From: Mayamaea pseudoterrestris
Taxonomy: Eukaryota
NCBI GenBank assembly: GCA_027923505.1
Contig: BROI01000001.1
Span: 186,001-250,000, forward strand
Direction: 5' to 3'
DNA: 64,000 bases
Shown here piece by piece: positions 4,225-40,716 of this stretch. Below the pieces are notes generated by a model. It ran no database searches, was not told where the DNA came from, and saw nothing but the letters and a program-made list of their open reading frames with translations. The stretch's first letter is position 1. Every line of letters begins with the position of its first letter. Position numbers and translations under genes: made by a program.

Positions 4225-6202
4225 ATGCCGCAGATACAAGCCTTTGCAGTCACTGATGCGGACAAGGTAAGTCATGTAACGAGATGGACCTGCTCGACGG
4301 ACGACGAAAATATACCGGACATGAATGCCTGTTGCGCGGGATGCTGAAAGTTTTGCAAGCTACTTGGTCGCCGTATCTGATACTCACAGCCGAAACCCCT
4401 TTTCTTTTAATTTACAGAACGCCATTGACGAGAAGCGATTCGCCGCCCTTGACACGCACCGTCCGGACGATTGGATGGGAGCGTCGGATCATAATCGCTC
4501 GTCGAGCAGCATGCGCGGATCATTCACTCGCAAGGACAATAGCAACCATGGTCCTCATTCTCCCAAGAAGAAGAGCTTGACCTTGGCCGAGGCTCGCGAA
4601 AAGATTGCTCATTTGGCGAAAGGCGACACGGACATTGAAACGAGCGATCACCATCATGTGCAGCATGGCAGTCATTCTCGCATGCCAACTGCTCCCGCTA
4701 TGGATATGGAGAGTGATTTGGATGACGAGGACGATGATGGTGTCGTCGAGTATTACTCGGCCGAGGAAGAGGAAACTGAAGCTGCAATGGTTTCGGATGA
4801 AGAGGAGGAACAGGCAGCACCCTCGACTTCTGCCGCAGTTTCCAAACCAATTACGCGGGCCACTGCAACTGACGCAGCCAAGCAGCCAGTGAAGCGAATT
4901 TCTACGTTCGAGTTGCAAATGGAAGGCATGACGAACAAGGATGACGAAAATATTGAACGCGTCAATCCAAACGCCAAGGCCAAGCATTCACAAGCACCAG
5001 AAGGATACGAAAATGATGGAAGCAAGCCTTGTGCATCCGCTGACATTGACTTGGACGCCTTGCAGGAAGCTCCACGCGCTCCACGATCCAAGCTTGATCC
5101 CACCAGTCGCCCGCGCACCATGAGAGGCAATTCGTTTGGCGGAACGGACCATGTGTTTGATGAAGGGACACTGCGTCGTGGTGAAAAGAAACCAACAGCG
5201 GTCGACAAGCACTTGCAGGCCAAGGTGGAGGAAGGAGCATTACCTGCGTCGGATTTTTCCAAGCCTATTGTCGTTGACGAGTCGGCTCGGCCAGACTATG
5301 CGCAGCGGCCGGGAAGCGTTCGTGGAAAGAGCAACATTGATTCGGACAAGGTGGCGAATGCAGCGTTGGGAGCTGGAAGTGCGAATGAAGGTGGTAGCAG
5401 CAACCATGGAGAAGAAGGGATTGAAGCGATTGTTGCGTCCGAGACTTCATTGGCCAAGGCTGATACCAAGAAACCAGCCAAGCGCATCTCTTCCTTTGAG
5501 TTGCAAATGGAAGGCCTTGCCAGTAAGGATGACGAAAACATTGAACGCGTCAACCCAAATGCCAAGGCCAAGCCATCCCAAGCACCTGAAGGATACGAAG
5601 ACGAAGAAAGAAACCCATTGACGGCGGCGGATGGTCTCGACCTTGACGATTTGCCGGAAGCTCCGCGAGCGCCCAAATCCCTCTTGGATCCAACGAGTCG
5701 TCCACGCACCTTGCGTGGCAACTCGTTTGGGGGCACGGATCATGTGTTTGACGAGGGAACAATTCGACGAGGAGACAAGAAACCCAAGGCTATTGAGAAG
5801 CACTTGCAGGAAAAGATGGCTACCGAAGAGAGTGAATACAGCAAGCCTATTACTCACGTTGACGAATCAGTTCGTCCCGACTATGCTCAACGTCCTGGCG
5901 TTGTTCGCGGCAAGAGCGGAATTGATGAGGACAAGCTGGCCGGCGTGGTTTCTAACATCCGAACTGGAGGTAAGAAGAAGTCGCCGGCAGTGGCAAGCGA
6001 TGATAATGAAATATCAAGCACTGGTGATCGACCTGCGCCACCAAAGCATTCCGATAGCAATGAGGAACTGCCAGATGTACGACGGCCTTCTGGATTTGGC
6101 GTCACGCTCCGAGGTACCAAGAAGGGAGAAAGGCTTTTGGCTGGGGAGGAGATTGCGCACCGAGTGGGAGGCATTCGAATTGTTGACGATGACGAGCAGT
6201 GA
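4225..6202 (+). CDS. Hypothetical protein with an internal ~155-aa duplication; 2 exons (4225-4266, 4418-6202)
   Basis: ATG at 4225; GTAAGT donor at 4267 and TTTACAG acceptor ending 4417 join in frame to the 625-aa ORF; C-terminus LRGTKKGERL...VGGIRIVD. Confidence 0.8.
4878..5941 (+). repeat. Intragenic direct duplication (about 4878-5356 and 5466-5941)
   Basis: Both copies encode KRIS(T/S)FELQMEG..DDENIERVNPNAKAK..RPRT(M/L)RGNSFGGTDHVFDEGT..RPDYAQRPG. Confidence 0.9.
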
Positions 6203-26048: not shown

Positions 26049-26276
26049 GGTGCTTGATAATGTCGCTCTTGTTGTTTGCTCGATAATATAGAAGCGTCTA
26101 TGAGTGTTGCAATCGTTGTTGCTGATGAAAGACGTTCGATTGCTTCAACAAACGTGTCTCGATTTTCGCCGGTTCGCCATGGTCGACCGCGGCGACGGCA
26201 GGTGTCTTAGCGGTTTAACTAAACGTCACAGTGGTTATGATTTAAACGAAACGGATCAGTTTTGCGGATCCGTTTC

Positions 26277-26506
26277 TCCGGCTTAGAGCGGATGCACAGA
26301 GGAGCCCGCCCTAGGGACTACCCGTAGGAAACCTACGGGTAAAGTAGCAGACACAGTTTGGATGACATTGAGATTGCCGCTAGGACATTGCGATTGCTGC
26401 TGCGACACTTGGACATCCCTTTAAGCCATCGGCTTTCAGCGGCAAGCCATTCCTTTCGGATCAGCTCTTGCACCCTTGTTAGCAATAGCATCTCCGTTTT
26501 TGTTCC
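26277..26506 (+). repeat. Split direct repeat A1 (230 bp)
   Basis: Matches 34604-34833 except for a TT/CC dinucleotide. Confidence 0.95.
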
Positions 26507-26550
26507 TCGCCTGTAGCTTCAAACCGCTTTCTTTCCTCATCATCATCATC

Positions 26551-28269
26551 ATGCTCATTCGTCTTCGTTTTCCTTCCCTAGCTGAGTTCGGGGGTGCTCC
26601 TGTGGCCCTCTCATGGCCGGAGGAGATTGCCTTGCCGACCACGTGGCTTGGAACGGATAATGTTCCTCCTAAAGGAGAGCGCGCCAAGGCGATGGAGCTC
26701 CAGCTTGATGGAAGCTGGGACAAGGAGAAGGACAAGGAAAAAGTGCTCCACAAATGGTTGACAAAGGAGGAGTTTTATGCGCTCAACCAGCGCATGTCGG
26801 TCAAGACAAAGGAGCCTGACGACGACGACGCCAGCGACATTTACCTTGGCGCACTTGACAAGCTCAAAATGATGGGCAACGCCAACGTTGGCGCTATGAT
26901 TACTCTCTCAAGCTTCTCGATTCCAGGGCAAGTGCTCGCAGACAATCACGCTTTGATTTGCTCGGCGGCGCCCTCTGGTACTGCCAACGGCAACGCCTTT
27001 TTACTTCAAACAAACCAAGCCACTTTGGACGCATTGGATACATCTGCCGGAGCCAAGGAACCTTCCTTCTTGTTGGAAGCTTGGTCTCACTTGCAGCCAC
27101 TGAATGTCGCGGCTCCATCCAGCGTCAACCCAGTTGTCTCAATTTTGACACGAAACACGCGCGCCACTTTGGTGACTGCTCCTGCGACTCGGCATTCCGA
27201 AGTACTGCACGATGCCTTGGTCTTTGCCAATGGCTTAAAATTGACCCAGCCAGCTTGCTTCCTGGTCCACAAAGAGGACATTCCAAAGGATCACCCTGCT
27301 GGCAAGTATTTTCTGGGACCAACGCCTCCCACCTTCACTTCTGGTGACAAACCTTTCGCGATTGTGACAACAAAACGTCCTGTGACGACGGAAAATATGC
27401 CGGATCTGCGCACTCTTGTGCAGCAACGTGCGCTATTCATACCGAAAGGCCATCATGGCATCCCACTTGGGGTCCCTTTCGATCACTTGCGCTGCCACAC
27501 TGGAGCGCTCCTCAAGGCCTTCTGCATGGAGTTCACGGAGCTACCGGATGAGGCCTACGCTTGGATGATTGATAATCCAATTTTGGATACTTTTCTTGCA
27601 GCATGCGCCACCCAGGCATCGGCCATGAAGCTTGACACATTGTTCATGGCACAATTGCACGAGTCCTGGGAGAGTTGGAAACTTGAGCAATCATTGGACT
27701 CGCATCTTGCCATTCTCCATCCGGAAACAAAGATCCGCTTCAGTTGGATGTGGGATTACCTCCGGCATTCACTCACAAAACAGTGGGGAAACAAGCTAAC
27801 GCTTTATGAGCAAAAAGGAATGGCCATTCTCCAGCAGTCACCCGACATTGCCGAGTGGAATAAAGAGTTTCTCATGGACACTATCCATTTACCATTGCTC
27901 GTCAATCCCAAGGCAAAGTTGTGGATTGAAAACTTTCATATTCCTTTCCTTCGCCAAAATTTGCTGCCCATTTGGAATCGGTTTGCAAGTGTCGACCTGC
28001 CGGCGGAATCTTCCGACGATTTTATCGCTTCGCTGCGCATCGAATTGAAAGACAAGATTTCGGACGCGCAGTCTCCGTCATCCGCTGCAAAACATAATAG
28101 CCAACCGGCTCCAGCAGCATTGGATATTCTAGCGGCCATGGGCTTCTCACATACGGTAGCAACACCAAACCGGGCGCCCACTGTGGCGGAAGATGAACAA
28201 TCACCGCGCGCAATCGTAAACTCACACCTTCACCACCCGACAAGGCAAAAAGAGGAAGGCGCTGTTTGA
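26551..28269 (+). CDS. YR-retrotransposon ORF1, unknown function (gag-region)
   Basis: Long ORF starting just after A1 (first ATG 26551); no motif recognised. Confidence 0.75.
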   Translation: MLIRLRFPSLAEFGGAPVALSWPEEIALPTTWLGTDNVPPKGERAKAMELQLDGSWDKEKDKEKVLHKWLTKEEFYALNQRMSVKTKEPDDDDASDIYLGALDKLKMMGNANVGAMITLSSFSIPGQVLADNHALICSAAPSGTANGNAFLLQTNQATLDALDTSAGAKEPSFLLEAWSHLQPLNVAAPSSVNPVVSILTRNTRATLVTAPATRHSEVLHDALVFANGLKLTQPACFLVHKEDIPKDHPAGKYFLGPTPPTFTSGDKPFAIVTTKRPVTTENMPDLRTLVQQRALFIPKGHHGIPLGVPFDHLRCHTGALLKAFCMEFTELPDEAYAWMIDNPILDTFLAACATQASAMKLDTLFMAQLHESWESWKLEQSLDSHLAILHPETKIRFSWMWDYLRHSLTKQWGNKLTLYEQKGMAILQQSPDIAEWNKEFLMDTIHLPLLVNPKAKLWIENFHIPFLRQNLLPIWNRFASVDLPAESSDDFIASLRIELKDKISDAQSPSSAAKHNSQPAPAALDILAAMGFSHTVATPNRAPTVAEDEQSPRAIVNSHLHHPTRQKEEGAV

Positions 28270-28297
28270 CTATAGCGCGCAACAGAAGCTTGGCTAC

Positions 28298-29962
28298 ATG
28301 GACATCGAATACGAGGCCTACACTGACGACAAGTCGGTGGACTATCTTGGCACCAAACCGGCACAGAACTCGCCACCGCGAATGACATTTAAATTACCTG
28401 CGCGCAATACAGTTACAACAACTTCAAACTCAACGTTTCTGCTGCCATACGAGCAACCACACACCCAGTTGTTGCCCTATTTTACAATGGGCACAAAGAT
28501 GCTCTCTCGCAACATTGATTTTCTCTTTCCGGTTGCTTCTTCGCAACCCGACCGATTTAATCGCCAAGCCTACGTGGAGGATGGACTCTCCAACGCTATT
28601 GTCCTGGCTGCTCATTTTGGAGCCATTGCTGTCGATCCAAGATTTCACATGGGCCCACGAGATGACAGTAAAGGACATCGTTTCCCAGATTGGCAAGTTC
28701 TCATCCCAGGATACGTGTCAAAAAAGTATACCTTAAATGTACTCGAGTCGAAAATTCCCGGCCACGTGACAAACCATTTCAGCAACGAACTTCGCGCCGC
28801 TCAAAACTCCACAATGGAATCTTACGCGCGACCGAGCTTTGCCAACAACGACTTCTTCACCACACCTGATAACATAAAAGCACTGCAATCAGGTCTTTTC
28901 TTTGCAGGCGATGATCCAACCTGCACCTTTGATTCCTATATCAGCCCATGGAGCTTCATTCAAACGGTCCAAAAAACTGGGCACCGCTTCACACAGGAAG
29001 GCTTGGACTGCGCAAAATTAGCGCAACTGACAAAGAATATCGCATGGTTTTTCCATATCCACTTCACAAACCAAGTTCGATTCCCAGCACTGCGCGAGGT
29101 ACATCCTGAACTCTCACCTTGGCTACTCGCATCTCCATTCGCTGGTCAACTAGCTTGGCTGATCCAGCTCCTCGCTAACCAGCGCCTGCAAGAAACATGG
29201 TCCAACATGTCGACTGACAGAAAACTAACTTGCTCAATTGCTGTCATCAACTCTATCTGCAATTTATGGCGCATTGTTATTGACTGGGCCATGTCACTCG
29301 ACTCCGATGATCATTGTGTGCGAGTACTGCTTCACTCCCAACAGTCACGCTCCGACGTCTGCGCGTTCAAAATGTTTTTAGACAACAATGGCTTTGAACC
29401 ATTGAGTGAGGCACTTGCAGCATGGCGATCCAGCACCATGAGGGGAATTACCATTGAAAATCTTACAGCAAAGGAATTGCCCAATTTTGGGCCTTTTAAA
29501 CGGCAAGCCCCCACGGACGTCATGCCTGAGAAAGCAAAACATCACGACAAGTCATCCACCCAACCAAAAACCTCAACAAGTGGCGCCAGCCAACAGAATT
29601 CAGCCGCACAAAAGCGTGAAACAACCGGTACGTATTTAAAAGCTCCTGCTTCGTTGGCACGTTGGCGTGATGGCACCGACTGTTCCGGTGCCGCAGTTCG
29701 GAAACTTTTTCAACATTTGAGCCGCCGCACTCCCCCAATCCGAGCTCCAGTGTTTGAAGGAAAACAATTATGCCTTTTCCATGCGCTGCATGGATCCCCC
29801 GGGTGCGATGTAAAAGACTGTCCACGCCATCACATTGTGCTTCCAGACCCAACTGGAACTTGGACGCGCGAGAAACTTCGCCCGCTTCTTGATTTTTTTC
29901 GCAAGCCAGCGGTAGCGGCCATTTTGGAAACCTCAGCTGTGTTTAACGCGGCATCATCTTGA
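28298..29962 (+). CDS. YR-retrotransposon ORF2, gag-like with C-terminal Cys/His finger
   Basis: CLFHALHGSPGCDVKDCPRHH near the C-terminus; located directly before RT. Confidence 0.75.
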   Translation: MDIEYEAYTDDKSVDYLGTKPAQNSPPRMTFKLPARNTVTTTSNSTFLLPYEQPHTQLLPYFTMGTKMLSRNIDFLFPVASSQPDRFNRQAYVEDGLSNAIVLAAHFGAIAVDPRFHMGPRDDSKGHRFPDWQVLIPGYVSKKYTLNVLESKIPGHVTNHFSNELRAAQNSTMESYARPSFANNDFFTTPDNIKALQSGLFFAGDDPTCTFDSYISPWSFIQTVQKTGHRFTQEGLDCAKLAQLTKNIAWFFHIHFTNQVRFPALREVHPELSPWLLASPFAGQLAWLIQLLANQRLQETWSNMSTDRKLTCSIAVINSICNLWRIVIDWAMSLDSDDHCVRVLLHSQQSRSDVCAFKMFLDNNGFEPLSEALAAWRSSTMRGITIENLTAKELPNFGPFKRQAPTDVMPEKAKHHDKSSTQPKTSTSGASQQNSAAQKRETTGTYLKAPASLARWRDGTDCSGAAVRKLFQHLSRRTPPIRAPVFEGKQLCLFHALHGSPGCDVKDCPRHHIVLPDPTGTWTREKLRPLLDFFRKPAVAAILETSAVFNAASS

Positions 29963-30133
29963 CTCCACCAAGGTGAAGCACTCGATCTCGACACATCGTC
30001 TGCGACGCCGGCGGGCGCACAGGCAGCACAGGATGGGCCAAGCTCAACTTATCCCAATTGTGCCTTTTTAAATAACAACTATAGAAAAATCACACAAATT
30101 AACATTGAACTGGACTGCTGCAACAATGCTGAG

Positions 30134-33043
30134 ATGACACAATCGCCATCACCCGCGGCGCCAAGGAATATTGAACCAGCAAACGCTCTCGTGGAAATGA
30201 GGCACACGGTCCCACCGTCGGCTCCAGCCTCCGTACCCTATTGCGACCAAACCTTGCGCAACATTCTGCCACACATTCCACCAACTGGTGCGCGGCCAGT
30301 TCGACTCACCCGATGCACACATCGCAAACCAACTCGCGCCTCCTCTGTGACGCGATACAATTGGGATCATTTTCTGGCAACCATCATGGCCCCAGTTTGG
30401 CAATTTTTAACGGACCCTGAATCAGCAACCCTACAGTCTGCATATCCTGATTTCTTACATCCAGTCTTTGGTTCAACAACCGTCATGCATCCTGATCCTC
30501 GCATTTGGCTTCGACAAAAATATGGTTGGGGCAAAGCGACTCCTGATATTTCGACGCGACACGCACAGCCATCGCACCACATGACCTTACACCTGGTATG
30601 GCATTGGCTTACAGTCTCAGATCGCCAAACAATGGCTGCTGTTGAACCTTGTTGGGAAAAATACGCACTTCTGCGCCAGCGTGCAACAGCACGAGCCGTC
30701 CCACACCTACGTGTGCCACGCCTGTTTCCGGCTGACGACAATACGCCTATCAGCATGACTCGAGCAAACGACATGGGTGCAGCCCTTCTGCGCTTTGACT
30801 TTAACTATGGTGACTTACTGCGCTGGCTTGGTGGTGAATATACCTACCAGCACCAAGATCGCTCGCTACTCTGTGATGTCGTGGAAACACTACGCACCGC
30901 CTCGCGCCCACCGGATTATCCACCGGTGAAATTGGACGAAGCAATACGCATTATTCATGAAGGCGTTCCAGGTAAAAGCAACTTTGTTGGAAAATTTGAG
31001 GATGTTCGTGCACGAGAACAGCTTGACAACCGTCGTTTGGACGAGTGCTGGGACGACGTAACGGACAAATTCCGCAAGGAAGAAAAAATGTCATACCACA
31101 TAATGTTTCCTCGCTTTCTATGGAAGTTTATCCCAGGCTTGTTCCTTGCCATTATCTCCTACATCCCTCCAAAAGTGGGCCGTCTTGGTGATGAAGGGCG
31201 GATTGTATGCGATCCATCAAATCCAATTACAACAACAGACGAAGGCATGATTAACAAGCAAATTCCAGACGCTCTCCACCCAGACAGTGACCATTTCAAT
31301 CCAAGAGTGTATTACGGCACTGTGATGCGCCGCTATCTCCAGCTAATTTATAACATGCGCCTCGATAATCCGGACGATGAGATTTTTCTGGCTGCTGATG
31401 ACATTTCAGCTGCGTTCCGCTGGCTGCACTACCACCCAGACATTGCTGTGGCTTTTGCATCCATCCTTGGTCCATTTCTTGTCATCCCGGTGGGGCTAAT
31501 TTTTGGCGCACGAAACTCGCCAGGATACTACATGATCCTTGGTGAACTACGCAGCCAGATTGCTGCGCTCCTTGATATTGGCGAGGCCACCACCGACCTT
31601 TCAAATACAATAGTGCTAAGCGACGAGCCAACCAACGAGACCATTGCATCTTTTCAACAGTCAACGGCAGACTCCAAGAACATGGGTGTTCGCTCAATAC
31701 TTGGACGCGACTATAAATTTGGCTTTTCCAGCTTTGTCGACGATCAGGCTGTCGCGGCGACACGCGACACGATTTTGAACGCAATTACCAGAAGCGTCAT
31801 CGCGGCTCGCATTGTTTTTGGTGAACCAACTCCAGCAAGACGCGCTTTATGTATCAACCCACGCAAATGGAAAAGGGAAATTTCACACCAACTGCTCTAC
31901 TTGGGTCTTGATTGGGATTCGCGCCGTATGGAATTGTCTTGGCCTGCGGACAAACAGGCACGCTTGGCATCTCTCATTGATCGCCTCAGTGACAAACCAA
32001 CCGGTTTTCGGCCGGATTACATTACAGTCACGCCAGTGGAAAAGGCAGAAATATTGGATTTAATATGCCATGGAACTTTAGTCAGTGATCTTGCCGATTT
32101 CCGTTCCATCCGCCTACAGCAATCTCTCACTGACGCAGCAAGTAAAGCTGACGCAGCATTTCGCTCCAGCCCCAATGCGAACTTTGCTCGCCGTCAATGG
32201 TGGCGCAAAACAAGGATCGCTATATCAAAAGAGGCACTGGCCGACTTGCGCATTTTACGTCCAACTTTGAACACGGACAAATGGTCTCACGTATGGCGCA
32301 AGCCAATTGGTCTGCTCATTCCAAGGGTACCAACAAACACCATGAAAAGTGACGCGAGCATGTCTGGCATTGGAGGCTGGAACATTGAGCTCTTGTTTAT
32401 GTGGTGCCTCAACGCATCCGACCTGCTCAGTTGTAACATTCCAATGCGAGCATTCCATGAATTGGCACATCGCACCACTGGTGATCCACTCCATATCAAC
32501 ATTCTGGAGTTCATGGCCATTATAATAAATGTGATTCTCACGCTGAGTGCTTTAATGGCAAATCCACAAACCAAACACAACCAACATGTCATTAGCGTCT
32601 TGGCCGACAATACTTCGGCCCTTTCCTGGATGCGTCACGCTGCGCGCAGTCGGGATCCTGAAATTCGTAGGTTGGCACGATTCTTACATGCCATCACCAC
32701 TTACAGCTGTCTCACTTTCTGCATCCAGGGACGTCACTTGCCGGGAGCCAACAATGTGGAGGCGGACCGACTTTCTCGCTTCAAAACCTCGACGGAGTCG
32801 TGGGAGTCCGTTATCACGCCGGAAACGCAGGCGCTAGCAACATGCAGCATTTACCGAGTGGAGCGCGACTTGCTTTTGACAATCTCCTCCGTGATAGACG
32901 GGAGCGCGAACGAGGCGACATACGGTCCAAAAACGATAAAACGTTTGACAGCCGCGCCAAAAATTTTGGTGAATGGGCGATCGACGCAGGGTTTACGGAC
33001 GAGTCTCTTACAGCGCTCGCACCGGGGCAAGAAATCTCGGTAA
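30134..33043 (+). CDS. Reverse transcriptase / RNase H (DIRS-type)
   Basis: RT: GRIVCD, DDISAAFR, LIFGARNSP, FVDD, YLGLDWD. RNase H: SDAS..GIGG, HINILEF, ADNTSA, HLPGANNVEADRLSR. Confidence 0.95.
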   Translation: MTQSPSPAAPRNIEPANALVEMRHTVPPSAPASVPYCDQTLRNILPHIPPTGARPVRLTRCTHRKPTRASSVTRYNWDHFLATIMAPVWQFLTDPESATLQSAYPDFLHPVFGSTTVMHPDPRIWLRQKYGWGKATPDISTRHAQPSHHMTLHLVWHWLTVSDRQTMAAVEPCWEKYALLRQRATARAVPHLRVPRLFPADDNTPISMTRANDMGAALLRFDFNYGDLLRWLGGEYTYQHQDRSLLCDVVETLRTASRPPDYPPVKLDEAIRIIHEGVPGKSNFVGKFEDVRAREQLDNRRLDECWDDVTDKFRKEEKMSYHIMFPRFLWKFIPGLFLAIISYIPPKVGRLGDEGRIVCDPSNPITTTDEGMINKQIPDALHPDSDHFNPRVYYGTVMRRYLQLIYNMRLDNPDDEIFLAADDISAAFRWLHYHPDIAVAFASILGPFLVIPVGLIFGARNSPGYYMILGELRSQIAALLDIGEATTDLSNTIVLSDEPTNETIASFQQSTADSKNMGVRSILGRDYKFGFSSFVDDQAVAATRDTILNAITRSVIAARIVFGEPTPARRALCINPRKWKREISHQLLYLGLDWDSRRMELSWPADKQARLASLIDRLSDKPTGFRPDYITVTPVEKAEILDLICHGTLVSDLADFRSIRLQQSLTDAASKADAAFRSSPNANFARRQWWRKTRIAISKEALADLRILRPTLNTDKWSHVWRKPIGLLIPRVPTNTMKSDASMSGIGGWNIELLFMWCLNASDLLSCNIPMRAFHELAHRTTGDPLHINILEFMAIIINVILTLSALMANPQTKHNQHVISVLADNTSALSWMRHAARSRDPEIRRLARFLHAITTYSCLTFCIQGRHLPGANNVEADRLSRFKTSTESWESVITPETQALATCSIYRVERDLLLTISSVIDGSANEATYGPKTIKRLTAAPKILVNGRSTQGLRTSLLQRSHRGKKSR

Positions 33044-34101
33044 TTGCCGCATACATGTTTGATGTTGTTTCCAGGGGACAATCCCTGCTGGCTAAAAAGA
33101 AGTCACAAAAATTCACCACACAACAAGATCCCACGCCTCTCTGTACCAAATCATTGGTAACTTACCTGAACTCAGCCCATTCATTCCTGGAGACATTTGT
33201 ACAACGCAGATTTTCGATCCAAGACCCTCGCGGCTCGGGCCACCATCCCTTACTGGCTGATATTCTGGACAGTCGTCGGAAATGGCAAACAACCAAGGAA
33301 AAACGCGAGCCATACACACATCGCATGTTTGACTTCCTCTACCAGTCTGTTTGTGCAGCAGCCACCACGGACACAACGGCGCACCTGGATCTGGAAGCCT
33401 CTGTTCTTGACTGGACTTGCCTTGGCGTATTCACCGGATCACGTGCTAACGAATATGCACAGTCCACCGCCAAACGTGGCCACTTTAGCAAAGTACCCAA
33501 CAGCAGAGATGCTGGTCAATGGGCAGGTTGGCCATTAGGCTTTGTGGACCTCGACTTTGTTTATTATACAAAAAGCAACGTTCTCCTGCCACATTCCATG
33601 TTACATAAAGCAGGCGACAGTGCGTACGAATTACACATTCGTTTCCGGTTTGACAAAAGCCAAAACAATTTTACGATTCGCAAGTATCGACGCTTGGGTC
33701 ATAAATTAATCTGCCCTATCCGGGCCAGCATTTCGCTGATTCTACGTGCCAAAATCCTTCACAAAGCACCATACGCAGAACCACTTGGAGTTTTTCGCTA
33801 CAACAACAATGGCGACTACCATTACCTCCAGGCGCGCGATGTAATCCGTGTAACGCGGCAGGCAGTGATTGGCGCTTACCCAAACCCAAACCACTTCCTA
33901 CGACTCAACATTACACGAATTGTTGCACATTCAAATCGCGTTACGGCAGCGGTAGCACTCAATAACTCTGGTATGAGCATTGAAGAAATAGCGTTTCGCT
34001 TACGCTGGTCACCACCTTCGGTGCACCATTATTTACGTGAATGTTCAGAAAAAATTGGTACACTTACCAGCAATGCCATTAAAGGCGCAATAATGCTATA
34101 A
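32842..34101 (+). CDS. Tyrosine recombinase (DIRS-type integrase), overlapping the end of RT/RH
   Basis: Catalytic set R (GSRANEY), K (FDKS), HxxR (HSNR), RW and Y (RWSPPSVHHYLR); first ATG at 32842. Confidence 0.93.
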   Translation: MQHLPSGARLAFDNLLRDRRERERGDIRSKNDKTFDSRAKNFGEWAIDAGFTDESLTALAPGQEISVIAAYMFDVVSRGQSLLAKKKSQKFTTQQDPTPLCTKSLVTYLNSAHSFLETFVQRRFSIQDPRGSGHHPLLADILDSRRKWQTTKEKREPYTHRMFDFLYQSVCAAATTDTTAHLDLEASVLDWTCLGVFTGSRANEYAQSTAKRGHFSKVPNSRDAGQWAGWPLGFVDLDFVYYTKSNVLLPHSMLHKAGDSAYELHIRFRFDKSQNNFTIRKYRRLGHKLICPIRASISLILRAKILHKAPYAEPLGVFRYNNNGDYHYLQARDVIRVTRQAVIGAYPNPNHFLRLNITRIVAHSNRVTAAVALNNSGMSIEEIAFRLRWSPPSVHHYLRECSEKIGTLTSNAIKGAIML

Positions 34102-34371
34102 TAAAATTACACCTTTACATTTACCCATTCTTCCTTGCATTGGGAATTTGAGGATTGGACAATTCAAGTTTGCATCCAAGGGCACTGACTCCCCCGAGTT
34201 CAGCTCGTCCTGGCGCTCCTCACCTGACGTCCTCCCTTTCCCAACATTGCACTGACCAGGACCTTTTCTCCTTTCTTTCCCATGCTTCTTTCTTCTTCCT
34301 TTCCGCGGTTCTTGCCACAGGCACTCTGTTGTTGTGGCTTGACGCCTTCAGCCTTGCTCGCTGAGTCGTGT

Positions 34372-34603
34372 GGGTTGTGGCGAATCCTGCAAGACAGGAT
34401 TCTCCTCAGGCGTCATCCATGACGTGTCTCCTGCTCTGGGAACCCGGAGTCCACTCCGTGTTCCTCAAACCATGCGACCCGACTCTCGCTACACTCGTCG
34501 AGCCACCTGAGGCACGAGCAAGTCTAAGCGCGCCAACGCGCGCAACACTTTGGAAGAACGAAGCAGCCGAGCGACGGAGGGCAATCAGCGCCCACGCTGA
34601 TTG
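34372..34603 (+). repeat. Split direct repeat B1 (232 bp)
   Basis: Identical by eye to 34847-35078. Confidence 0.95.
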
Positions 34604-34833
34604 TCCGGCTTAGAGCGGATGCACAGAGGAGCCCGCCCTAGGGACTACCCGTAGGAAACCTACGGGTAAAGTAGCAGACACAGTTTGGATGACATTGAGA
34701 TTGCCGCTAGGACATTGCGATTGCTGCTGCGACACTTGGACATCCCTCCAAGCCATCGGCTTTCAGCGGCAAGCCATTCCTTTCGGATCAGCTCTTGCAC
34801 CCTTGTTAGCAATAGCATCTCCGTTTTTGTTCC
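34604..34833 (+). repeat. Split direct repeat A2 (230 bp)
   Basis: Copy of A1, directly abutting B1. Confidence 0.95.
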
Positions 34834-34846
34834 CCCCCACCCACCC

Positions 34847-35078
34847 GGGTTGTGGCGAATCCTGCAAGACAGGATTCTCCTCAGGCGTCATCCATGACGT
34901 GTCTCCTGCTCTGGGAACCCGGAGTCCACTCCGTGTTCCTCAAACCATGCGACCCGACTCTCGCTACACTCGTCGAGCCACCTGAGGCACGAGCAAGTCT
35001 AAGCGCGCCAACGCGCGCAACACTTTGGAAGAACGAAGCAGCCGAGCGACGGAGGGCAATCAGCGCCCACGCTGATTG
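34847..35078 (+). repeat. Split direct repeat B2 (232 bp), right end of the element
   Basis: Copy of B1, separated from A2 by a 13-nt C-rich spacer. Confidence 0.95.
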
Positions 35079-35267
35079 ATTTTTTCCACAGCTTGAGCAG
35101 ATCGTTCACTATAAACACGACCATTCACACTGCTACATCTGTTGAAAACTCGACGATTTTATACACGCAAGGCCAAATATGTTTTCATAGCATAAACGCT
35201 TACGAACGTTTTAGGCGCTTCAACGATGCACGAAGCAGTCGTCGCGCGCAGTTTACAGCACCATCAT

Positions 35268-40686: not shown

Positions 40687-40716
40687 GTCACGAGGCGCGC
40701 CGGCGCGCCTCGTGAC
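40687..40716. promoter_or_regulatory. Perfect 30-bp palindrome upstream of the Cu-ATPase
   Basis: GTCACGAGGCGCGCC|GGCGCGCCTCGTGAC; a regulatory role is inferred from position only. Confidence 0.45.

Follow-up and report, generated by a model that had tools for sequence, protein, structure and literature searches.

The 64,000-nt stretch of the genome of the diatom Mayamaea pseudoterrestris that was analysed here (contig BROI01000001.1, positions 186,001 to 250,000 of the forward strand; hereafter the window) carries one copy of a Ngaro-like tyrosine-recombinase retrotransposon of the DIRS order, located at 26277-35078. The element possesses a short stem-loop at the very end of its right split direct repeat, and comparison with metagenomic relatives indicates that this structure is conserved as a fold. 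A second, unrelated hairpin lies in the DNA directly outside the left end. Our reading is that the first of these serves as a signal on a replication intermediate of the element while the second is incidental, and we hold it with moderate confidence, as somewhat better than an even proposition.

The repeats and open reading frames (ORFs) of the element are arranged in the order A1, ORF1, ORF2, reverse transcriptase/RNase H (RT/RNH), tyrosine recombinase (YR), B1, A2, a 13-nt C-rich linker and B2. The layout given for Ngaro elements in the available text of two papers is A1, ORFs and then B1A2B2, with split direct repeats (PMC8547959, PMC13465315). The two copies of repeat A (26274/26277-26511 and 34601/34604-34838) share 98% identity over 238 nt, and the two copies of repeat B (34372-34603 and 34847-35078) are 100% identical over 232 nt. 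A1, the left split direct repeat, is placed at 26277-26511 on the plus strand, its real likeness to A2 running out at about 26506, while its start is kept in relatives. The repeat comparison places A2, also on the plus strand, at 34604-34838. The start motif of A, TCCGGCTTAGAGCGGATGC, occurs twice in the 64-kb window, and the sequence TCCGGCTTAGAGCGGA, which opens with TCCGGC, begins A1 at 26277 and likewise A2 at 34604. B1 (34372-34603) and B2 (34847-35078) both lie on the plus strand, the final base of B2 being the right end of the element. At the internal B/A junction, where B1 meets A2, the element keeps a copy of its circle junction.

The ends of the element are exact, with TCCGGC... at the left and ...ATTG at the right, the latter falling at 35078 and being followed by host sequence ATTTTTTCC. 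No target-site duplication is present, the left flank reading ...CCGTTTC and the right flank ATTTTTT.... The Ngaro-like features for which the element was tested, namely split direct repeats, an RT, a tyrosine recombinase and absence of a target duplication, were all found.

The stem-loop at the end of repeat B

The 3′ terminus of B1 forms the stem-loop CAATCAGCG-CCCA-CGCTGATTG (34582-34603, plus strand), with a perfect 9-bp stem and a 4-nt loop. It is preceded by GGAGGG and abuts A2, the TCCGGC of which follows at 34604, so that it belongs to the stored copy of the circle junction. As this hairpin is the 3′ end of repeat B, it also closes the element at 35078, an identical stem-loop making up the last 22 bases of B2 (35057-35078, plus strand). 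DNA folding of 34570-34630 gave -14.5 kcal/mol (z -3.30, with 1 of 200 shuffles as good) and that of 35045-35105 gave -10.9 kcal/mol (z -2.57, with 4 of 200 shuffles as good). The sequence of this inverted repeat is exactly as described in the original prediction, an earlier reading of the same DNA by sequence inspection, which had set it beside the hairpin outside A1 as two sites differing in sequence and sharing a position. The two do share the same register. The internal hairpin, however, is the end of repeat B and recurs at 35057-35078, which the prediction had not noted; since it belongs to the element and is present twice, its place ahead of A2 says nothing independent about the choice of site.

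Relatives of the element were drawn from 79 metagenomic loci (L-numbers below) which encode recombinase relatives with 34-51% identity. In these, every B end that could be located has a run of G residues followed by a stem-loop with CAAT...ATTG feet, and at the internal junctions the hairpin precedes the pattern T(C/T)CGGC..AGA..CG..TGC. The stems themselves vary in both sequence and length (7-12 bp), examples being CAATCAGC/GCTGATTG in L034, CAATCGC/GCGATTG in L036 and L037, CAATCGCA/TGCGATTG in L020, CAATTGGTGAT/ATCACCAATTG in L004 and L005, and CAATTGGTGATC/GATCACCGATTG in L006.

Covariation was tested over a helix of 11 pairs, using 13 distinct B ends aligned from the element and its metagenomic relatives. 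In this alignment 95.5% of the 132 cells pair, a figure that drops to 12.0-50.0% on shifting the 3′ partner by 1-3 columns, and two-sided changes are found in four of the pairs (14 cells). Neither the covariation score nor the paired fraction of the helix was matched by any of 500 shuffles. The outer CAAT/ATTG feet are nearly invariant (12-13 of the 13 rows). The internal hairpin is thus a conserved, built-in stem-loop of the element, kept as structure while the sequence of its stem changes. RNAalifold recovers the helix unguided, together with three further pairs, GGG:TCC, across the B/A boundary. Pairing of this GGG is possible in all eight rows in which A follows B (with TCC, TTC or TCT, G.U being allowed) and in one of the five rows in which a flank or other sequence follows instead. 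Among the non-Watson-Crick cells, as read on the sense strand, there are ten G.U against three A.C, a lean that fits a role of the B hairpin on the sense strand in single-stranded form.

The B end is one of several such structures. Repeat A contains the perfect hairpin TACCCGTAGG-AAA-CCTACGGGTA (26319-26341, plus strand), which is repeated in A2 at 34646-34668, and at about the same place in A (approximately +43) a hairpin of other sequence is present in L006, L009, L010, L012 and L017, having the form ACGAGCTC-nnn-GAGCTCGT in all of these apart from L010. One subfamily has a third hairpin, again with CAAT...ATTG feet, at about 200 nt past the recombinase gene (L007:3205-3222, L010:4890-4907, L011:1571-1588, L012:3695-3712 and L013:6248-6265); it possesses a 7-bp stem and the loop ACGC and is followed by the conserved sequence AAACACGCGCACAACCGGCTCCA. 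The non-coding repeats of the element family are accordingly dense in conserved stem-loops. The small TCCG..CGGA stem with which A was said to open is present, but it amounts to only 4 bp and is not kept in relatives, where the start of A is of the type TCCG...CGAG (L006, L009 and L012) or TTCG...CGGG (L036).

Tyrosine recombinases usually bind inverted repeats, and the B-terminal palindrome might accordingly be read as a double-stranded recombinase-binding site, that is, an attachment-site arm composed of two inverted half-sites. Its location directly beside the crossover point would suit such a site, as would the near invariance of the CAAT/ATTG feet, which is what a protein contact would be expected to leave. 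The geometry is less suitable, for in sites of the Cre/loxP type the crossover falls in the spacer between the arms, whereas here it is at the outer foot, about 11 nt from the centre. The inner stem moreover covaries freely and differs in length between relatives, which suits pairing over protein read-out, its mismatches are mostly G.U, which have meaning only in a folded single strand, and the second and third hairpins elsewhere in the non-coding repeats are kept in position and not in sequence. A duplex binding site is on this evidence considered quite unlikely.

Two further observations concern the surroundings of this hairpin. The C-rich linker between A2 and B2, CCCCCACCCACCC (34834-34846, plus strand), has no counterpart after A1, and its minus strand is a purine tract; a CCCACCC-type tract ahead of B2 is also found in L001, L014, L035, L037, L042 and L071. 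A2 thus lies between two purine tracts, the minus-strand one of this linker and the plus-strand G-run before the B hairpin, and these are possibly strand-priming signals.

The left-flank hairpin and the target sites

The hairpin outside the left end, GAAACGGATC-AGTTTTGCG-GATCCGTTTC (26248-26276), has a perfect 10-bp stem and a 9-nt loop and ends one base before A1, the TCCGGC of which starts at 26277. Its sequence also proved to be exactly that of the inverted repeat first noticed there. DNA folding of 26240-26300 gave -12.9 kcal/mol (z -4.06), with none of 200 shuffles as good. The 64-kb window contains eight distinct perfect hairpins with a stem of at least 9 bp and a loop of 3-12 nt, five of which are in or against the element and three elsewhere. 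The host DNA alone (55,198 nt) has two perfect hairpins of at least 10 bp (shuffle mean 0.5) and four of at least 9 bp (shuffle mean 1.7). From these host counts, a hairpin of at least 10 bp should by chance have its end precisely at the insertion point in about 1e-5 to 4e-5 of cases, a figure that rises to about 1e-4 to 5e-4 if a slack of 3 nt to either side is permitted at either end of the element.

No second copy of the flank hairpin was found in the window, and blastn of both flanks against the element and the 79 related loci returned no match better than E 0.15. The hairpin is also without the signature of the family, having neither the G-run nor the CAAT/ATTG feet nor a loop of 3-5 nt. 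It is host DNA lying outside the element. It has been reported that DIRS-1 inserts preferentially into existing DIRS-1 copies (PMC7192593), and the hairpin could by analogy be the relic of an older mobile element hit by the present insertion, for example a small inverted-repeat element or another Ngaro family's B end. The right flank of the window does bear a weak likeness to the start of A (GCTT-GAGCAGAT compared with GCTTAGAGCGGAT, with 4% of background 40-mers scoring as high). The blastn result, the uniqueness of the hairpin in the window and the missing family signature all speak against a relic, and the intergenic spacer in which the insertion lies measures only 413 bp, leaving little room for an older element. 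This origin is regarded as highly improbable.

A further reading of the flank hairpin is that integration is guided by structure, as the original prediction proposed in likening the recombinase to the integron integrases that act on attC. The machinery would recognise a stem-loop and take its 3′ foot as the point of joining. Normally this would be the element's own B-terminal hairpin; in the target, preference would be given to a hairpin or cruciform of the genome, or to a hairpin formed by extrusion on single-stranded DNA, with A being joined directly after it. Several features of the window are as this would have them. Two unrelated perfect hairpins stand in the same register, one base before TCCGGC, one of them at a position where chance would place a hairpin only very rarely, and the junction hairpin is kept as structure and not as sequence. 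The cDNA of DIRS-1 is single-stranded (PMC7192593), and the recombinase model weakly resembles an integron integrase (2a3v_C, E 0.03, rank 43).

The test set beforehand for this proposal was the presence of hairpins at other insertions. Most of the metagenomic loci are without flanks, their contigs stopping in the repeats or being of unit length or circular-looking, and the usable flanks came to only two further left ends and five further distinct right ends. The two left ends belong to L010 and L017, which are members of the same superfamily but of a different (sister) subfamily, their recombinases being 42-46% identical to that of the element. The left end in L010 is at 833, with an A1 that shares 92% identity with the A of L012, and the B end is at 5863; L010:833-5863 looks to be an internally deleted derivative consisting of A, interior and B, without A2-B2 and without an RT ORF. 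The left end in L017, at 4437, is that of a decayed copy. For this second insertion an empty target is available, as a 3-kb region of L010 (11140-14122) is 91% identical to the left flank of L017 and continues past the insertion point. The two align as ...CCGATCTTTC(G/A)ATAA, after which L017 has TCCGGC... and L010 has AGTGCTCGAG..., and the break is clean, without duplication on the left side. The comparison establishes that the element starts exactly at TCCGGC and that the unoccupied target, ...TCTTTCAATAA^AGTGCTCGAG (with the caret at the insertion point), has no hairpin.

When the left flanks were folded as 40-mers, that of the window gave -10.0 kcal/mol, a value reached by 0.2% of 3000 background 40-mers, whereas those of L010 (-2.8 kcal/mol, 50%) and L017 (-2.9 kcal/mol, 48%) were at the background median. 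For scale, roughly 2% of background 40-mers reach -8 kcal/mol or lower. Seven right flanks were available, these being from the window, L006, L009, L010, L012, the reverse-strand element in L004 and the L017 target as seen in L010, and their 40-mers fold at 0.0 to -2.6 kcal/mol (54-100% of background). A notable hairpin is therefore present in one of three left flanks, the window's own, and in none of the seven right flanks. In this small sister-subfamily sample the expected hairpins were absent from both related left ends and all the right flanks, so structure-guided targeting is not supported as a rule of the family. What survives of the proposal that folded sites are read is a structure-conserved hairpin 5′ of the B/A crossover, and what does not is a choice of hairpin-bearing targets.

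The related left ends lack hairpins even though the junction hairpins of these elements are longer (11-12 bp) than that of the window, and the flank hairpin of the window does not resemble the family hairpin that such machinery would normally read. The G.U bias of the B helix points to the sense strand, while first-strand cDNA is antisense. The window was also a case picked out because of the coincidence itself. Guidance of integration by structure is for these reasons considered unlikely, although for this lineage it is kept in play by the rarity of the abutment and the want of any sequence rule, and the flank hairpin is probably a coincidence, or reflects at most a weak target preference.

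Likeness in sequence between target and junction, of the kind in which attB resembles attP, was also considered and was rejected as a general rule, with seven of eight flank-versus-junction comparisons at background and the remaining one, between the right flank of the window and the start of A, at p=0.04. The want of a convincing likeness is itself in keeping with guidance by structure. With the crossover marked by a slash, the junction reads ...ATTG/TCC and the targets read ...TTTC/ATT (window), ...TTTT/TCT (L010) and ...ATAA/AGT (L017). TT is common to the junction and two of the three targets, and a full trinucleotide at the crossover is shared by none of the three, so that the target sites have at best a loose T-rich tendency. 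They recall, without matching, the rule known for DIRS1-like elements, whose integration makes use of an NTT identity of 3 bp and leaves no duplicated target (PMC3266345).

Some other observations were made on the related loci. The motif CCACAG(G)CTTG is common to the right flanks of two insertions unrelated to each other, those of L009 (9133-9150) and the window (35086-35098), where its distances from the B end are 7 nt and 1 nt; it is not in the other right flanks and could be due to chance, at about 1 in 100 by a rough estimate. The L010 element borders on unrelated DNA at either end, and L011 shares its right junction; the derivative perhaps arose from recombination between two B copies or between two junction sites. 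Circular-looking assemblies or those of more than unit length, with terminal overlaps, are found in L014, L037, L045, L057 and L079, and in L014 a stretch of 3036 nt is repeated at a period of 9793. The simplest view of such contigs is that multi-copy split repeats have affected the assembly, but they may also be tandem or circular forms. A pattern for the A start (19 nt, of which 14 bases were specified) was too loose when used against viral and genome contigs, none of 240 loci having the extended A consensus. Its matches, at least 120 in each of the two sets, lie in phage or bacterial DNA and are dismissed as chance. A recombinase-alignment search of the viral contigs for the same purpose gave 10 pattern matches, none of which was confirmed.

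Encoded proteins and host setting

All four ORFs of the element are on the plus strand. ORF1 (26476-28269) comprises 597 codons from its first possible start and has no recognised family, being Gag-like by position only. ORF2 (28298-29962) encodes 554 amino acids, likewise without a recognised family, and has a Cys/His-rich stretch at its C-terminus; comparison of ORF2 with the protein atlas gave a top score of 0.79 and no family.

ORF3 (30134-33043, 969 amino acids) codes for a reverse transcriptase followed by an RNase H-like domain, as judged by motifs, AlphaFold and Foldseek. It has 1332 homologues at E<=1e-3, and in the alignment the residues DD (422-423), VDD (535-537) and D740 are invariant, as is the D-A-S motif. 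The AlphaFold model has a mean pLDDT of 78.8, and among the matches listed by Foldseek (47 rows within the best 50 ranks) there are only reverse transcriptases, the top ones being those of CaMV (E 1.3e-9), HERV-K, XMRV, foamy virus, MoMLV and Ty3 (3.2e-7). The RNase H-like assignment is a prediction that draws on motifs and on Foldseek alignments of 581-755 columns reaching past the RT core towards the C-terminus, and in the model ORF3 stops shortly past this part. A public gene model of 1203 amino acids (P0125) is 100% identical to ORF3 over residues 101-846 and then diverges.

The product of ORF4 (32800-34101, 433 amino acids) is a tyrosine recombinase by its catalytic set and its Cre fold. 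It has 306 homologues, and R215, K286/K295, H377-x-x-R380, W403 and Y411 (the R-K-H-R-W-Y set) are invariant in the alignment. A profile of ORF4 searched against the PDB matched only Cre/Tre (17 of 17 matches, E about 0.05), over the H-R-W-Y segment. The model has a pLDDT of 87.2, and its best Foldseek match is Cre (E 8.5e-6, TM 0.61-0.68), followed by the integrase of Tn1549 (6emy_A, E 3.2e-3), XerH/XerA and, weakly, the integron integrase already mentioned. ORF4 overlaps ORF3 by 244 nt (32800-33043), and in relatives the conserved N-terminus of the recombinase reaches back beyond its first ATG (residue 15), suggesting that the protein is made by way of a frameshift, as a fusion or from a start codon other than ATG.

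In the four ORFs, no family of RT, recombinase or Gag was recognised by Pfam with a usable E-value, the Phage_integrase match to ORF4 being weak (E 0.062). There was no Pfam match of any kind to a methyltransferase-like domain, the lack of which separates Ngaro from DIRS1-like and PAT-like elements, in the four ORFs, in a search that also misses the RT and in which ORF1, ORF2 and residues 1-300 of ORF3 have no assignment. Nothing was found by Pfam in ORF3 or in 23 aligned homologues, so that none of 24 RT homologues matches the RT model, and a PDB sequence profile for the RT returned a single match, at E 0.29. For every recombinase homologue listed, the precomputed Pfam annotation was empty. 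The element family is divergent, abundant in metagenomes and invisible to Pfam, and because the RT and recombinase of so widespread a family go undetected there, standard annotation will miss such elements.

The element is inserted in a 413-bp spacer between two minus-strand host genes, 228 bp upstream of the start of one and 185 bp downstream of the stop of the other. The former has PX and Ysc84 domains (Pfam), and its product has a 100% match in a named protein of a freshwater pennate diatom, followed by proteins of Phaeodactylum, Nitzschia and Cylindrotheca. The genome paper for the diatom names mainly Copia-type repeats in its available text and describes a diploid whose heterogeneity is 2.97% (PMC9724779). 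Elsewhere in the window, a perfect 30-nt GC-rich palindrome, GTCACGAGGCGCGCC/GGCGCGCCTCGTGAC (40687-40716), lies in the intergenic spacer between two plus-strand host ORFs, and a 151-nt direct repeat (4878-5028 and 5466-5616, 81% identity, 588 nt apart) is located in or beside a long host ORF. Rfam and tRNA scans of the 64-kb window gave no matches.

Role of the stem-loop and relation to known systems

The mechanism proposed is that the B stem-loop and the G-run before it act on a single-stranded replication intermediate, which may be either the RNA template or the cDNA, and have no part in target selection. The sense-strand G.U pairs, the freely varying inner stem and the presence of other conserved hairpins suit RNA or single-stranded DNA better than a duplex read by protein. 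The stem-loop would mark the exact 3′ end of B, for example as a start site or primer of reverse transcription. The G-run may pair with the first bases of A (TCC) and, as it is able to do so, the end of B would be held next to the start of A for formation of the junction. The Cre-like recombinase would then insert the circular copy, at its junction, into loosely specified and often T-rich sites without target duplication. The flank hairpin would be ordinary host DNA at the foot of which the insertion occurred by accident, and related elements would have no need of one. We infer the strand and the step at which the B hairpin acts, as well as the incidental nature of the flank hairpin, and the specific role in end definition or as a splint is the least secure part of the whole.

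A number of points weigh against this reading. To call the flank hairpin incidental requires that a rare coincidence be accepted, because exact abutment by chance is expected at only about 1e-5 to 4e-5. The hairpin-free left ends are just two in number and from a different subfamily, and the L017 copy is decayed. The GGG:TCC extension shows no covariation because both of its sides are conserved; it is compatible with pairing, which covariation leaves unproven. Seven of the ten G.U cells fall in one column and are probably a single inherited change. The step at which the B hairpin acts is a guess.

There is a more speculative variant, in which a single-stranded intermediate would fold by way of the G-run and the B stem-loop and so bring the 3′ end of B into a stack with the 5′ end of A, leaving a nick within a single helix at which the element's enzymes would seal or exchange strands. 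The same activity could accept a genomic hairpin in place of that of B, and the left junction of the window would be a captured example of this. Such a self-splint is thought improbable. If true, it would represent structure-guided, homology-free integration by a eukaryotic retrotransposon, in parallel to the single-strand recombination of integron attC and CTX phage.

The closest system for comparison is the Ngaro of Cafeteria burkhardae (PMC8547959), with which the diatom element shares the split direct repeats, an RT/RNase H, a YR with H-x-x-R and Tyr, and the absence of target duplication. Derivatives missing part of the repeat set are also a common feature, represented here by L010 among the relatives and in Cafeteria by the "solo AB" forms (PMC8547959). 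The two differ in that the Cafeteria ORFs match PF00078 and PF00589, whereas the RT and recombinase of the diatom element are too divergent for Pfam; the diatom element also has two ORFs without a recognised family before the RT in place of one, and an overlap between ORF3 and ORF4 (PMC8547959). No description of a hairpin at a Ngaro junction was found in the literature search, the original Ngaro and PAT descriptions being outside its coverage. Within the same coverage, the only hairpin tied to such elements is one near the 3′ end of the DIRS-1 mRNA, once suggested to be a primer for reverse transcription, the cDNA of this element being single-stranded (PMC7192593). DIRS-1 of Dictyostelium resembles the diatom element in that its ends are restored from a copy of the circle junction kept inside the element and in YR integration at very short identity, and it differs in having inverted terminal repeats together with an ICR (internal complementary region) instead of split direct repeats, the role of its hairpin being only a suggestion (PMC7192593). 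The diatom hairpin, unlike that of DIRS-1, ends exactly at the crossover and covaries across many relatives.

Outside the retroelements, there are bacterial systems in which a tyrosine recombinase works at the foot of a folded hairpin, namely integron attC with IntI and the CTX phage with XerCD. In these the hairpin is read by its shape and homology to the partner is unneeded. The hairpin is carried by the mobile partner, the target is a defined duplex site and hairpins in the target are not required. The diatom element differs from integron attC in that no R/L-box or core of the GTTRRRY type was seen in it, the fold match of ORF4 to IntI is weak beside that to Cre, and its relatives insert without target hairpins. 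Elements of the Tn916/Tn1549 type rely on a YR to insert a circular intermediate into loosely defined AT-rich targets without homology at the crossover. A likeness to these is proposed, as a circle would here also be inserted by a YR into loose targets, and the Tn1549 integrase is among the fold matches of ORF4 (6emy_A). Tn916 and Tn1549 are however bacterial DNA elements that do not undergo reverse transcription and that terminate in imperfect inverted repeats, not in a hairpin.

Among tyrosine-recombinase retrotransposons, DIRS-1 is the only one for which there are direct experiments on the priming of reverse transcription, circle closure and target choice (PMC7192593). As it stands, the element offers a useful conserved cis-signal together with one unexplained coincidence. 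Should the flank hairpin be a coincidence, it is a reminder that a single insertion cannot define a target rule; should it not be, it would give a first indication of integration directed by shape in a eukaryotic retroelement. The family is a large one, as seen from its recombinase and RT homologues, and the compact covarying signal that ends at its crossover, comprising the G-run, the CAAT/ATTG stem-loop and the start of A, provides a mutable target for experiments on how the ends of these elements are defined and their junctions formed.

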